64,000 nucleotides of DNA from a virus (IMGVR_UViG_3300021963_000087:1-64000); one strand, 5' to 3'. Shown: positions 4,323 through 14,402, counted from the first letter of the stretch. The notes: generated by a model not told the origin, from the sequence alone. Numbers and translations: made by a program.

Positions 4323-4532
4323 ATGCCATCAGAGCAGGAAGGTAAAAGAGATTTTATAAAGGACATACACTATTATTTGGAGGGGGATCGTGTGATATTC
4401 ACATCCCTCTTCCATTTAGAAAGGGGTCAATGCTGCGGAAATGGGTGTAGGCATTGTCCTTACGAACCTAGACATAAAAGAGGCAATAAAATTTTGGATG
4501 AAAAGTTTGCTCATTCAAAAAAAATATCTTAA
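4323..4532 (+). CDS. small Cys-rich protein ([11 protein letters not shown] motif)
   Basis: 69 aa ORF with the motif [15 protein letters not shown]. Confidence 0.35.
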
Positions 4533-4550
4533 TTTTAACAAAAGAATCTT

Positions 4551-5024
4551 ATGAAGACTATTTTTAAATCTACCAAATTATTTGACGGCTATTCTACCTG
4601 CTTCCGTCAATGGAAAGCAGAAGGTACACATTGTAAATTTTTACACGGATATGCTGTATCTTTTAGAGTGTGGTTTGAAGGAGAGTTGGATGAAAGAAAC
4701 TGGGTATTTGACTTTGGTGGTATGAAGCGTGCAAAGTGTAATATCGAAGGTAAGTCACCTAAAGATTTCTTTACTTGGTTATTAGACCATACAACAGTAG
4801 TAGCAGAAGATGATCCATACTTAGAGCTTTTCAAGCAAATGGACAAAGATGGTATTATTCAATTGCGAGTACTACCTTCAGTAGGCTGTGAAAGATTTGC
4901 TCACTATTTGTATGACAAGATCAATACATTCTTATTAGAAGAAACACAAGGAAGAGTGAGAGCAGTTAAAGTAGAAGTATACGAGCATGAAAGAAACTCA
5001 GCTTCGTATGAACAACAAGATTAA
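4551..5024 (+). CDS. queD: QueD/PTPS-family 6-carboxytetrahydropterin synthase-like
   Basis: Aligns with E. coli QueD around the catalytic Cys and the HGH-like motif (THCKFLHGY; LLDHTTVV). It is divergent and may lack one Zn-binding His. Confidence 0.6.
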   Translation: MKTIFKSTKLFDGYSTCFRQWKAEGTHCKFLHGYAVSFRVWFEGELDERNWVFDFGGMKRAKCNIEGKSPKDFFTWLLDHTTVVAEDDPYLELFKQMDKDGIIQLRVLPSVGCERFAHYLYDKINTFLLEETQGRVRAVKVEVYEHERNSASYEQQD

Positions 5025-5051
5025 TAATAAAATAAAACATGGAGGAAAACT

Positions 5052-5255
5052 ATGAAGTGTTTAAAAAGTTCAAAGACAGGTGAAATCATTCGAGTAAGTG
5101 ATGAAAAAGCCTACAATGCATCAAGTGAATGGAAGTTTATTCCTAAATCAGAATGGAAAGCTCAGTTTAGAAAAGCAGCACCACAAGTAGAAGAAGTTGC
5201 AGTTGCGGAACCAACAATCGCAGAGAAGCAATTAAAAAAGAAAAAATCTAAATAA
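5052..5255 (+). CDS. hypothetical protein
   Basis: ORF with a Shine-Dalgarno-like ggaggaaaa upstream. Confidence 0.35.
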   Translation: MKCLKSSKTGEIIRVSDEKAYNASSEWKFIPKSEWKAQFRKAAPQVEEVAVAEPTIAEKQLKKKKSK

Positions 5256-5725
5256 TGTCTTACAGCAGATGGTCTAACAGTAGGTGGTATACTTTTTGGA
5301 GTGCTATGGGTGCAGAGCCAACTCAGTACAAATGGCCTACCCAAAAGTTAAAAGATAATCAAGTATTTGAAATATGTGACATGCCCTCTTACCACATCAC
5401 TTATGGTGACTTAAAAAGAAGATCCAGATCCGCAATACTACATGAAATAGAAGAACACTTTGCAGCTGACTTTGATTGGCATGATATAGAGATTGTTGAT
5501 GGAAAGCTAGAGCGAGGTAAACCGAAAGTCATAAAAGGTAGAAGACCTACCTGGGATGAATTAAATGAATTACAATTATATCTTGCCCGTTTTATAAAAG
5601 ATGTTGATGATCACTTTAGATTTTGGACCTTTATGAAATATGAATGGTATTTTCCATTTAGAAATAAAATAATATTTAAGTATAGAAAATTAAAACAACG
5701 TTATGTCAAAGATAGATCCAAGTAA
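5255..5725 (+). CDS. hypothetical protein
   Basis: ORF in array. Confidence 0.35.
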   Translation: MSYSRWSNSRWYTFWSAMGAEPTQYKWPTQKLKDNQVFEICDMPSYHITYGDLKRRSRSAILHEIEEHFAADFDWHDIEIVDGKLERGKPKVIKGRRPTWDELNELQLYLARFIKDVDDHFRFWTFMKYEWYFPFRNKIIFKYRKLKQRYVKDRSK

Positions 5726-6536
5726 GTTATTAATTAGTAGTGACTTTTACACAGTCCAGGGAGAAGGAATTTCATCAGGTATTCCATCCTACTTTGTACG
5801 TTTAGGTATTTGTAACCTAACATGCGGCATGTCTCGTAAATTTGCTAATCAATTAGAGAAGGAACAAAAGTTAGAAGATGGTGAAATCTTTGTAGGCGAC
5901 TTGCATGCAGAAGGTAAAGCTACTTGGACTTGTGACTCTACTTCTCAGTGGTTATGGAGAGGTGAAGATAAAGATTTCCAATATTTAATTGATAGATGGA
6001 AAGAACAAGACATTTATGATGATATCATAAACGGTAATATTCATATTATTTGGACTGGTGGTGAACCTACAATTAAAGGACACCAAGAAGCAATTATTAA
6101 TTTCCTTGCATATTGGAAAGATGATAGATTTAATGCTAATTGTAGACCGTTTAACGAAATTGAAACTAATGGTACTATTGTTATTGATGAATTATTTGAT
6201 CATTTACAACAAATCAACTGCTCACCTAAATTGTCAAATTCAGGTATGACTGAAAAACAACGTATTAATCCAGAAGCAATTAAGCGTATTATGGAGCATG
6301 ATAACTATCAATTTAAGTTTGTTATTAGTACTGAAGATGATGTTAAGGAACTATTCCGTGACTTCGTAGAACCGTTTAATATACCACTTAAGAATGTAGT
6401 GTGTATGCCAGGTTTAGATGACGCAGCTAACTTTGAAGAAAGAACTCGATTTGTAATGGAGATGGCTAAGAAGTACAGATTTAGAGGTTTAACTAGATTA
6501 CACATTGCGGCTTGGAATAAAACATTAAACGTATAA
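5703..6536 (+). CDS. queE: 7-carboxy-7-deazaguanine synthase (QueE-like radical SAM)
   Basis: TVQGEGISSGIPSYFVRLGICNLTC matches the QueE N-terminus, and WTGGEPT matches the GGEP motif. The cluster motif reads CNLTCGMS (Cx3Cx2S). Confidence 0.75.
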   Translation: MSKIDPSKLLISSDFYTVQGEGISSGIPSYFVRLGICNLTCGMSRKFANQLEKEQKLEDGEIFVGDLHAEGKATWTCDSTSQWLWRGEDKDFQYLIDRWKEQDIYDDIINGNIHIIWTGGEPTIKGHQEAIINFLAYWKDDRFNANCRPFNEIETNGTIVIDELFDHLQQINCSPKLSNSGMTEKQRINPEAIKRIMEHDNYQFKFVISTEDDVKELFRDFVEPFNIPLKNVVCMPGLDDAANFEERTRFVMEMAKKYRFRGLTRLHIAAWNKTLNV

Positions 6537-6537
6537 T

Positions 6538-12852: not shown

Positions 12853-12855
12853 CCT

Positions 12856-13119
12856 ATGAAAAACCATAATTATAACTTACCCACAGGTACAGATGAACAA
12901 GGACCTTATTGGTTAGATGAAAATAATAACAAATATAGATGGAATGGGCCAATGGTAGGACTCAGTATGAGCATGGAATTCTCTGTAATAGAACAAGAAG
13001 CTCAGAAACGACATCCCTATGAAAAACACATGGGTGCTACATGGGAAAATGGATTACACGAAGGTTTTATAATGGGTGCAGAATGGATGAAACAACAAAT
13101 ACTTAACCAAAACAAATAA
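12856..13119 (+). CDS. hypothetical protein, paralog B (C-terminal ...WMKQQILNQNK)
   Basis: C-terminal 20 aa nearly identical to the preceding ORF. Confidence 0.45.
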   Translation: MKNHNYNLPTGTDEQGPYWLDENNNKYRWNGPMVGLSMSMEFSVIEQEAQKRHPYEKHMGATWENGLHEGFIMGAEWMKQQILNQNK

Positions 13120-13125
13120 ACAGTT

Positions 13126-13365
13126 ATGAAAGTAAAAGAATTAATTGAAGCACTACAAAAAGTAGAAAACCAAGATGCAGAAGTATTCTACGGTAAAGAA
13201 AGTGAAGGAAGTATGTACATTTGCCATTATGATTTAGAAGAACATGATACTGATGGTAAATACGCTCACCCTGAATGGAATGCAGATTTTACTCCTAAAG
13301 AAAGAGTTGCTGACTATCCATATGATGAACCATCTAGATTGTCAATTTGGTTAGGATACCTATAA
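13126..13365 (+). CDS. hypothetical protein
   Basis: ORF in array. Confidence 0.35.
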   Translation: MKVKELIEALQKVENQDAEVFYGKESEGSMYICHYDLEEHDTDGKYAHPEWNADFTPKERVADYPYDEPSRLSIWLGYL

Positions 13366-13375
13366 ATTATAAATT

Positions 13376-13591
13376 ATGAGAACAGCAATGCAATTAATGC
13401 TTTGGTATTTAAAAAATGAAGGTCTTGAAGAAAGTGGAGCATATTATAAAGCTAAAATGCTACTTGAAAAAGAAAAAGAGGATTTAATGAAAGCATTTTC
13501 AGATGGTCAAGAAACACCAATAAACCATCCCACTCTACCTCATTATAGTAGAGAGGAGTATTATAACGATAACTATAATCAAGATAAATAA
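13376..13591 (+). CDS. hypothetical protein
   Basis: ORF in array. Confidence 0.35.
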   Translation: MRTAMQLMLWYLKNEGLEESGAYYKAKMLLEKEKEDLMKAFSDGQETPINHPTLPHYSREEYYNDNYNQDK

Positions 13592-13592
13592 T

Positions 13593-14402
13593 ATGAAAAA
13601 AGTAAAGTACGGATACATATCCCCAATTAAGTATCAGCACCTCATTCCAGAGAGTGCTGACTTTCATTTGATATTAGCTCACTTATTAGATAAGAAAGAG
13701 TACGTAGATTTCTACAAAGAGAAGATCAAGAGAGGCGATACAGTGATATTAGATAACTCAGCATTTGAGTTCAAGAGAGCGTTATCAGCTGAAGAGATCT
13801 TTGGCTTTATTGAACGTAGTGGCATTGAACCAACATATGTAGTAGCTCCAGATTACCCATTCCAAGAATGGCAAGTTACTATGGAATCTACTCTAGCTTT
13901 TATAGAAGAAGTTAAAGATAAACCTTACAAAGTAATGGCTGTTCCTCAAAGTAGAAGAGGTGATGTAGATGGATGGGTAACATGTTATGATTTAATGGTT
14001 ACGAATCCTAACATTAGTGTAATTGGTATGTCTATTTTAGGCATTCCTAACGCATTCCATGCGATGACTGGTACAGACGATATCGCTTTTAATAGAATAT
14101 TTGCAACCAAATATTTATTAGAGCGTAAGAATAACCATCCAACTAAGTGGCATCACTATTTGGGATTGGGTGGAGGACCGAGAGAAATCTTGATTCAAAG
14201 GCAGTTAGGATTAATGGATAGTAATGATTCATCTTCTCCTTTCTGGCATGGTTGTATGAATATTCATTTTGATAAAAGCATTTGGGGATTACAATATGGA
14301 AAAAGCAAGGAAGAAGTTAACTTCGATTTTGAATACTATCCAGGAAATGCTGAAGTTATTAAATATAACATCGATTACATGGAAAATGTTATTTTAAAAT
14401 AA
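13593..14402 (+). CDS. dpdA: DpdA-like / tRNA-guanine transglycosylase-fold protein (7-deazaguanine DNA transglycosylase candidate)
   Basis: ILDNSAFEF resembles the TGT DSGGFQ substrate-Asp motif. HHYLGLGGGPREIL...GLMDSNDSSSP resembles the TGT LMGVGxP...D motif. No C-terminal Zn site. Confidence 0.5.
   Translation: MKKVKYGYISPIKYQHLIPESADFHLILAHLLDKKEYVDFYKEKIKRGDTVILDNSAFEFKRALSAEEIFGFIERSGIEPTYVVAPDYPFQEWQVTMESTLAFIEEVKDKPYKVMAVPQSRRGDVDGWVTCYDLMVTNPNISVIGMSILGIPNAFHAMTGTDDIAFNRIFATKYLLERKNNHPTKWHHYLGLGGGPREILIQRQLGLMDSNDSSSPFWHGCMNIHFDKSIWGLQYGKSKEEVNFDFEYYPGNAEVIKYNIDYMENVILK

Follow-up and report, generated by a model that had tools for sequence, protein, structure and literature searches.

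The question raised by positions 4,323 to 14,402 of the viral sequence IMGVR_UViG_3300021963_000087:1-64000 (the 64-kb stretch that was analyzed, called the window below) is which modified base its scattered 7-deazaguanine genes would place in the phage DNA. A 7-deazaguanine DNA-modification set with a DpdA-type transglycosylase but without QueC had been recognized there in an initial annotation, and the gene identities obtained in our study agreed with this. The locus probably encodes a pathway of the type found in Cellulophaga phage phiST, by which guanine in the phage DNA would be replaced by 7-deazaguanine (present in DNA as 2'-deoxy-7-deazaguanosine, dDG). It was assigned to this type because FolE, QueD, QueE, DpdL, and DpdA3 without QueC is the genotype of phiST; phages phi13:1 and phi19:2 have the same gene set (Cui et al. 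2023, NAR 51:9214, PMC10516641). Analysis of the DNA of these three phages by liquid chromatography–tandem mass spectrometry showed that 100% of G was replaced by dDG, with no dG and no 7-carboxy-7-deazaguanine (CDG) in DNA (dCDG) (PMC10516641). The base dCDG is known only from Sulfolobus virus STSV-2, which encodes DpdA and ArcS, at 0.04% of G (PMC10516641). The link between a missing QueC and dCDG in published phages, on which the initial annotation had relied, therefore did not hold. Its further suggestion of a different or more elaborate base was right in that the base should differ from dCDG, but the base is most likely the dDG already described, since DpdL is present. Read in this way, the locus is a further example of a published dDG system and not new chemistry. 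When the literature was searched for subsequent studies of DpdL or DpdA3, Cui et al. 2023 was the only paper found.

In the predicted pathway, GTP would be converted to dihydroneopterin triphosphate by FolE, 6-carboxytetrahydropterin would be made by QueD, and CDG would be supplied by the radical-SAM enzyme QueE. The carboxyl group of CDG would be removed by DpdL, a QueD-like metal enzyme, to give 7-deazaguanine, and DpdA3 would swap guanine in the phage DNA for this base. Complete or nearly complete replacement of G would be expected, together with resistance to restriction enzymes with G in their sites. DpdA3 phages were reported to be fully modified (PMC10516641). With no QueC in the window, the pathway would not end at preQ0. 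The dADG of Campylobacter phages is made with a QueC-like enzyme, QueC*, and the preQ1-derived bases of immuto (fdPreQ1) and phiSM (mdPreQ1) need QueC and QueF plus DpdN or DpdM (PMC10516641). Neither the ADG synthase QueC* of the dADG type (CP220) nor the QueC, QueF, and DpdN or DpdM set of the preQ1 type was found in the window.

The four genes named in the initial annotation (QueD, QueE, FolE, and the transglycosylase) were all present on the + strand where it had placed them (Table 1), and their identities were supported by homology. The whole CDG-synthesis set, FolE, QueD, and QueE, was found with Pfam, PHROG, NCBIfam, and BLASTP against phiST. QueD was 59% identical to the QueD of phiST (BLASTP, 7e-71) and 62% identical to that of Flavobacterium phage immuto, and its motif HCKFLHGY corresponded to CxxxHGY, as in phiST. 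QueE shared 25% identity with phiST QueE (8e-12). When it was aligned with six other phage QueEs, C37, C41, C77, T118-G-G-E-P, and SPK were invariant, and it has both the three-cysteine [4Fe-4S] motif and the SAM-binding GGE motif. Its cluster-binding loop was extended by 33 inserted residues between the second and third cysteines (residues 42-76), giving the spacing Cx3Cx35C. The spacing is the canonical Cx3Cx2C in ACP17 and MA9V-3 and Cx3Cx7C in phiST, and PA5oct possesses a longer insertion at the same site. The open reading frame (ORF) 10321-11433 had been assigned to FolE as a whole, and this was correct for residues 186-364, but the 5' 40% of the ORF encodes an AAA_18 P-loop domain (residues 12-123). 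The FolE domain retains its own ATG at 10792, and was 48% identical to phiST FolE (6e-67) and 81% identical to the stand-alone FolE of the related locus L005.

The fifth gene, ORF 9996-10343, overlaps the start of ORF 10321-11433 and was not mentioned in the initial annotation. Its product was 42% identical (E 5e-28) to CGPG_00067 of phiST, which was named DpdL and proposed to be the decarboxylase converting CDG to 7-deazaguanine (Cui et al. 2023, PMC10516641). What defines DpdL is that LxxxHRHxF replaces the QueD signature CxxxHGH (PMC10516641, section 16), and the protein has been reported in phages with DpdA, FolE, QueD, and QueE but without QueC (PMC10516641). Residues 30-38 of the window protein, LAERHRHIF, are an exact LxxxHRHxF signature. 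L30, H34, R35, H36, and F38 were invariant in 19 diverse homologs, and the signature was also present in the relatives L005 and L020 to L022. Homologs of DpdL were detected in 29 phage records, with no immuto record and no Campylobacter phage among them.

The conservation of DpdL also bears on whether the pathway might stop at CDG, which DpdA3 would then insert, so that the DNA would contain dCDG or some unfamiliar further derivative. The lack of QueC in the window would suit such an outcome, as would several conserved ORFs of the module that have no assigned function, and insertion of CDG by DpdA3, as a shared precursor that would be tailored on the DNA, was considered by Cui et al. (PMC10516641). 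However, DpdL is present and conserved, phiST shows dDG only with the same gene set, and the trace of dCDG on record came from an archaeal virus whose gene set is different. Moreover, Pfam, PHROG, and NCBIfam revealed no additional tailoring enzyme in the module. A pathway ending at CDG is thus very unlikely compared with the dDG pathway.

The transglycosylase was 30% identical to CGPG_00065 of phiST (E 4e-20) and 24% identical to the immuto protein (7e-14), and these two enzymes are the founding members of the subfamily DpdA3 (PMC10516641). The TGT/DpdA fold proposed earlier for ORF 13593-14402 was confirmed by a structure model, which was a (beta/alpha)8 barrel of the tRNA-guanine transglycosylase (TGT) type with the DNA preQ0 insertase DpdA as the best match. 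The ORF gave no Pfam (PF01702) or NCBIfam match at E<=0.01, and only chance matches in a PDB profile search. The motifs LDN(S/G)A and S-x-D-(S/T) and the residue D87 were invariant in the DpdA3 of the window, phiST, immuto, Vibrio D479, and MA9V-3. D54 and D212 were invariant in 30 homologs and in an eight-lineage alignment, and from motif resemblance they may correspond to the catalytic D102 and D280 of TGT. For the Zn2+ site of TGT (CxCxxC...H), no cysteine was invariant or nearly so in the 30 homologs or the eight-lineage alignment; the zinc site is therefore absent from DpdA3. Compared with bacterial DpdA (PDB 7ui4) and TGTs, the window protein is small (269 aa against 373-577 aa) and only 12-17% identical, and lacks both a PF01702 match and the conserved zinc-binding cysteines. 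BLAST from the window or phiST DpdA3 did not reach the Campylobacter DpdA3. The substrate of DpdA3 is one that we infer.

The transglycosylase and DpdL also bear on the idea that these are auxiliary metabolic genes serving queuosine, folate, or tRNA modification in the host, the phage DNA being unmodified. Many phages carry just FolE, QueD, and QueE, and these had long been interpreted as genes for queuosine (PMC6884629). However, a DpdA-family gene is regarded as a signature of DNA modification (PMC10516641), DpdL has no role in queuosine synthesis, and a zinc or RNA-binding domain of the tRNA-TGT type was not found. A purely host-directed role is scarcely credible here.

A DpdA3-like gene was also noted in Bacillus phage BSTP10 (L023, MW354677.1, 4339-7695), where it was deposited as 'polynucleotide kinase'; sister records label it 'integrase' or 'NadR'. 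On its upstream side it overlaps a P-loop 'thymidylate kinase' gene, and on its downstream side DNA polymerase I, and the cluster around it contains Gat-QueC, QueD, QueE, and FolE.

The absence of QueC from the 64 kb, as claimed in the initial annotation, was borne out by Pfam, motif, and tblastn searches. Among 110 non-overlapping + strand ORFs of at least 45 aa, Pfam gave no PF06508 (QueC), QueF, ArcS/DUF5591, GATase, or formyltransferase, and the profile checks for QueC, Gat-QueC, ArcS, and QueF that had been proposed found none of them in the window ORFs. The SGGxDS motif did not occur in any of the six frames. Furthermore, tblastn with phage and E. coli-type QueC probes returned nothing at E<=1 in the window; the QueC of immuto was recovered as a positive control. 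The QueC, QueF, and DpdN of immuto gave chance matches only in the window (E>=1.4). No QueC was found in the flanks reached through metagenome contigs, about 4 kb upstream and about 9 kb downstream. In immuto, QueC lies between thioredoxin and the tRNAs, 11 kb from QueD, and the matching window interval (30.3-32.2 kb) holds only a small ORF, the transfer-messenger RNA (tmRNA), and a GIY-YIG gene. In addition, QueC is missing from Chryseobacterium phage MA9V-3, whose complete 103-kb genome shares the DpdL-kinase-DpdA3 core with the window. The empty syntenic slot, the QueC-free flanks, and the QueC-free MA9V-3 genome together argue against a hidden QueC.

If QueC, QueC*, or Gat-QueC did lie outside the window, the DNA would carry dPreQ0, dADG, or a preQ1 derivative as in immuto. 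The window is only part of a genome, QueC is distant from QueD in immuto, and the two backbones are syntenic, with PolA proteins 58% identical. However, apart from the empty slot, no QueF or DpdN stands beside DpdA3, unlike in immuto, no immuto record has a DpdL homolog, and the DpdL phages are reported to lack QueC (PMC10516641), as does the fully sequenced MA9V-3. A distant QueC of this kind has little probability.

Several points weigh against the assignment to dDG. It is a prediction from the gene set of this phage. The decarboxylase activity of DpdL is likewise a prediction, and when DpdL and DpdA of phiST and ACP17 were expressed in E. coli, no dDG was formed (PMC10516641). The relationship between DpdL and QueD was 99.9% by HHpred for the phiST protein (PMC10516641). 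For the window DpdL, no QueD/PTPS match (PF01242) was given by hmmscan against Pfam, and a PDB profile search yielded chance matches only. The hhalign comparison with five phage QueDs was weak (14% probability, E 0.002) and covered only the C-terminal 37 columns (SCE...V.V.E..N.A segment). Five NCBIfam QueE models matched QueE at 1e-7 to 8e-14, all under their curated cut-offs. Moreover, the QueC search covered 64 kb and about 13 kb of flanks in a genome of probably about 170 kb, with about 100 kb unread.

Table 1. Features of the 7-deazaguanine locus and its immediate neighbors (positions in the window).
Feature	Position	Strand	Evidence
Cys-rich DUF5522 small protein	4323-4532	+	Pfam DUF5522 9e-17; directly upstream of QueD
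QueD (6-carboxytetrahydropterin synthase)	4551-5024	+	Pfam PTPS 4e-15; PHROG 2389 (QueD-like) 3e-37
QueE (radical-SAM 7-carboxy-7-deazaguanine synthase)	5703-6536	+	PHROG 2076 (QueE-like) 6e-40
Accessory block between QueE and DpdL sub-cluster (~3 kb)	6538-9564	+	Band_7 5.5e-20, TAT_signal 2e-4
Two small conserved ORFs (75 aa, 74 aa)	9548-10018	+	tblastn
DpdL (proposed CDG decarboxylase, QueD paralog; 115 aa)	9996-10343	+	PHROG 17812 2e-28
P-loop domain like nucleoside monophosphate (NMP) kinases, phiST CGPG_00066 family	10321-10788	+	AAA_18, residues 12-123 (Pfam)
FolE (GTP cyclohydrolase I) domain	10792-11433	+	Pfam GTP_cyclohydroI 8e-41, residues 186-364 of ORF 10321-11433
Block separating FolE from DpdA3 (2.1 kb)	11489-13591	+	HNH endonuclease 11489-12244 (PHROG 6e-21) and four small ORFs
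DpdA3-subfamily guanine transglycosylase (269 aa)	13593-14402	+	Homology to phiST/immuto DpdA3; TGT-type TIM barrel
65-aa ORF, N-terminal phosphoribosyltransferase (PRTase)-like remnant	14402-14599	+	L020 PRTase-like protein by tblastn: 14438-14575, 2e-12
DCD/dUTPase-like deoxynucleoside triphosphate (dNTP) pyrophosphatase	14769-15293	+	Pfam DCD 3e-13; NCBIfam PRK02253 2e-24, below cut-off

The P-loop domain fused to FolE belongs to a family that accompanies DpdL. The N-terminal 156 residues of ORF 10321-11433 were homologous to CGPG_00066 of phiST (tblastn 9e-9; AAA_18 in both), and the protein shows an NMP-kinase fold with DGIRQ and Arg-rich LID-like motifs. CGPG_00066 lies between DpdL and DpdA3 in phiST, and in 2023 no homolog was found in other 7-deazaguanine phages (PMC10516641). 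Homologs were now detected in MA9V-3 (3e-17) and in every examined relative of the window. In every Bacteroidota-phage lineage examined, the kinase gene was immediately downstream of DpdL, with an overlap of 23 nt in the window, phiST, and L022 alike. At the fusion junction, the window reads TAC CAA ATG and its relatives read TAC TAA A ATG, so that the stop codon is lost and CAA at 10789-10791 leads in frame into FolE. Among the matches listed, all 120 metagenomic kinase homologs were stand-alone proteins of 128-174 aa, most of them ending in ...TIINNY, and the fusion was observed only in the window among more than 120 homologs. A sequencing artefact is unlikely as its cause: a contig from a separate assembly in ENA was identical across the junction, and two changes relative to the relatives are needed (T-to-C and the loss of one A).

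Genes of kinase and pyrophosphatase type were found beside DpdA3, or one gene away, in five to six lineages, and the proteins filling these roles were not orthologous. The pyrophosphatase and the kinase are MazG and AAA_18 in phiST, a DCD/dUTPase-like protein and AAA_18 in MA9V-3, the window, L005, and L020, a DCD-like protein and a T4-gp1-like DNMK in Vibrio D479, and a PRA-PH/MazG-like protein and AAA_28 in immuto. In Bacillus phage BSTP10, a kinase gene abuts the DpdA3-like gene and PolI, and no pyrophosphatase was identified. We consider it possible, though doubtful, that the kinase-like protein and the linked dNTP pyrophosphatase are a working part of dDG formation. If so, DpdA3-type phages would build the base partly at the nucleotide level, from dGTP to dGMP, followed by exchange or salvage, re-phosphorylation, and incorporation; alternatively, the excised guanine would be recycled to GTP for FolE. 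Either route would explain the 100% replacement of G and the failure of DpdL plus DpdA in E. coli. The pattern may also reflect a general clustering of nucleotide-metabolism genes.

In its strict form, this idea would place the same enzymes in a pre-replicative route through the nucleotide pool, mirroring the logic of gp56, gp42, and gp1 in T4. The pyrophosphatase (DCD-like here, MazG in phiST) would convert dGTP to dGMP; the small, zinc-less DpdA3 would exchange the base on the nucleotide, or a PRTase would make the nucleotide; and the NMP-kinase-like protein would re-phosphorylate it, after which the phage polymerase would incorporate dDGTP. The hydroxymethylcytosine pathway of T4 (gp56 dCTPase, gp42, and gp1 dNMP kinase) is an analogy for the gene trio only, as the enzymes are unrelated. 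The recurrence of non-orthologous kinase and pyrophosphatase genes near DpdA3 would be consistent with this route, as would the kinase motifs and the PRTase genes described below. Furthermore, DpdA3 phages are 100% replaced, DpdA3 as well as DpdL plus DpdA failed in E. coli (PMC10516641), and for Campylobacter phages a route by way of modified dGTP had been proposed. However, TGT-family enzymes are known to act on polymers only, and in the view of Cui et al. the exchange is post-replicative in every case (PMC10516641). The kinase family was detectable in Bacteroidota phages only (6 of the 29 DpdL records), and nucleotide-metabolism genes cluster in large phages anyway, so the adjacency is perhaps non-specific. 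The pool route is unlikely, and exchange of guanine in the DNA by DpdA3 is retained as the last step of the predicted dDG pathway.

Two further genes of nucleotide metabolism, one of them degenerate, follow DpdA3. Homologs of the DCD-like protein adjoin the module in L005, L020, MA9V-3, and D479, and from this position we infer a link to base modification. In the 65-aa ORF 14402-14599, the PRTase domain itself is missing. The PRTase-like protein of L020 was 45% identical to immuto gp211, which is annotated as 'phosphoribosyl transferase', and a PRTase-type gene is present in the module of the relatives, immuto, and PA5oct (L005 11499-11924, L020 10130-10669, L002 9846-10241, and L010 7160-7594). 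Between the 65-aa ORF and the DCD-like gene there is a ribosomal protein S21 gene (14577-14765, Pfam 6e-9), which was not found at the corresponding position in L005 and L020.

The scattered arrangement of the genes had been taken as a pointer to another base. The interspersed Tat-signal, SPFH, and Cys-rich ORFs are real (DUF5522, 4323-4532; Tat-like, 7145-7707; Band_7, 8213-9172), but the relatives keep the same genes in a tight block, from which the window differs by insertions. In L005, L020, and L022, the order is QueD, further on QueE, two small ORFs, DpdL, the P-loop protein, FolE, and DpdA3, followed by a small ORF or PRTase-like gene, DCD, and PolA, with no more than a single homing endonuclease or additional ORF intercalated. 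The accessory block at 6538-9564 contains a 205-aa ORF, two ORFs with Tat-like signals, the SPFH/Band_7 gene, and a Zn-ribbon ORF. It was absent from L005 and L020, and part of it was present in L021. The block at 11489-13591 was absent from L005 and L022, in which FolE and DpdA3 are direct neighbors, and from L020, in which a single ORF separates them. Because the relatives are compact and L021 has part of the first block, the dispersal is a derived state, in which accessory and homing-endonuclease genes were inserted into an ancestrally compact operon; both blocks are outside the pathway. Such dispersal is common in large phages with these pathways, for example immuto, ACP17, and PA5oct, and taken alone it is no sign of new chemistry. 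The 75-aa and 74-aa ORFs likewise sit between QueE and DpdL in L005, L020, L021, and L022. The DUF5522 gene precedes QueD in L011, L020, L021, and L022 as well, and its product may be a metal or redox partner. The two Tat-like ORFs, 7145-7486 (MENRRNFFK) and 7486-7707 (MNNRRDFLK), are adjacent, and such twin-arginine-like signals are unusual for phage genes.

Compared with the known systems, the window shares with phiST the CGPG_00066-type P-loop protein directly after DpdL, and both hosts are probably Bacteroidota. However, the genome of phiST is 79 kb, its seven genes form a compact cluster, and its pyrophosphatase is MazG, whereas the window phage is much larger, related to immuto, and has the DCD/dUTPase-like gene in place of MazG. 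It differs further in the P-loop~FolE fusion, the QueE insertion, and the two inserted blocks, and protein identities to phiST are 25-59%. Chryseobacterium phage MA9V-3 (PV245944.1), for which no modification study was found, resembles the window in having the DCD-like, DpdL, AAA_18 P-loop, and DpdA3-like genes in a row, a tmRNA, and no QueC. It also has an HNH gene of the same family within the module, 35% identical to 11489-12244 and directly before DpdL; in the deposited annotation, this HNH gene and DpdL are merged into one coding sequence of 293 aa. Unlike the window, MA9V-3 has DnaE/PolC-type replication genes in its 103 kb, and its FolE and QueE are located upstream at a distance of a few genes. 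The DpdA3 of MA9V-3 is nearer to phiST DpdA3 (43% identity) than to the window DpdA3.

Immuto was the closest cultured backbone. It shares with the window the series 5'-3' exonuclease, DnaB, and ribonucleotide reductase, the order QueD-x-QueE-...-FolE-...-DpdA3-...-PolA-GroES-GroEL, and the dispersal of these genes. Immuto makes formyl-preQ1 and carries QueC, QueF, and DpdN along with a PRTase, a MazG-like gene, and a kinase of the AAA_28 type; in the window, their place is taken by DpdL and the AAA_18 kinase, and QueC, QueF, and DpdN were not found.

In the window, which belongs to a large phage genome of marine type, the credible genes are all on the + strand, and the GC content is about 35%. 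The left end carries a 5'-3' exonuclease, DnaB, and a class II ribonucleotide reductase, followed by the 7-deazaguanine genes; S21, the DCD/dUTPase-like protein, and a family A DNA polymerase come next. Then follow Hsp20, GroES/GroEL, a cohesin-domain protein, a non-specific endonuclease, thioredoxin, a tmRNA, and four tRNAs, and the right part contains a PD-(D/E)XK nuclease and a sugar/glycosyltransferase cluster of about 17 kb. A megablast search of 4000-15000 against 50,697 phage records gave zero matches, and the phage thus has no close cultured relative. Several metagenome assemblies contain identical or near-identical pieces of the window. Since relatives whose DpdA is 75-78% identical are on contigs of 139-172 kb, the full genome is probably about 170 kb, of which the window would be well under half.

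Hsp20, GroES, and GroEL (18902-21516) are directly 3' of the DNA polymerase; PolA is likewise followed by GroES and GroEL in immuto, and by Hsp20, GroES, and GroEL in L005 and L020. The tmRNA (30860-31247, Rfam 75 bits) has the tag peptide ANEYAVAA and precedes tRNA-Met, tRNA-Leu, tRNA-Ser, and tRNA-Gln (32238-32839); a tmRNA is also carried by MA9V-3. A 422-aa protein of secreted type (28285-29553) contains a long Ala/Ser-rich and then a Ser/Glu/Lys-rich low-complexity region. A local rise in GC was observed at 32-34 kb, at the tRNA genes, and not at this gene. Homing-endonuclease-type genes were found at 11489-12244, 29606-30298, 31292-31933, and 53118-53678 (HNH, NUMOD3, GIY-YIG SegE-like, and HNH_3). 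The sugar-nucleotide/glycosylation cluster at 35166-52438 includes GT1, three GT2, and GT10 and GT11 fucosyltransferase-like genes, GDP-mannose 4,6-dehydratase, several epimerases/reductases, a DegT aminotransferase, and split transketolase-like subunits, with a SAM methyltransferase inside it (47812-48507). The glycosyltransferase cluster (35-52 kb) was considered as a possible base derivatizer and rejected, as no link to the module was found and 7-deazaguanine has no obvious attachment point. As a proxy for protection from restriction, palindrome avoidance was uninformative, with mild depletion only of CTAG, CATG, and GTAC.

The kinase~FolE fusion, the QueE insertion, the DCD-like gene in place of MazG, and the inserted blocks are lineage-specific features, and the lead given by this locus is the DpdL-kinase pairing. 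The predicted dDG genotype extends beyond the small Cellulophaga phages to a widespread uncultured lineage of large immuto-related phages; homologs of DpdA3, DpdL, and the kinase domain in metagenomes numbered 185, 434, and 621, respectively. One phage backbone can carry alternative tailoring cassettes, DpdL with the kinase in the window lineage and QueC, QueF, and DpdN in immuto. The DpdL-kinase pair, together with the kinase and pyrophosphatase genes beside DpdA3, are candidates for the "other unknown enzymes" invoked in the 2023 study after the failed reconstitution of dDG. With these candidates, the question of how DpdA3 phages replace guanine completely becomes testable.

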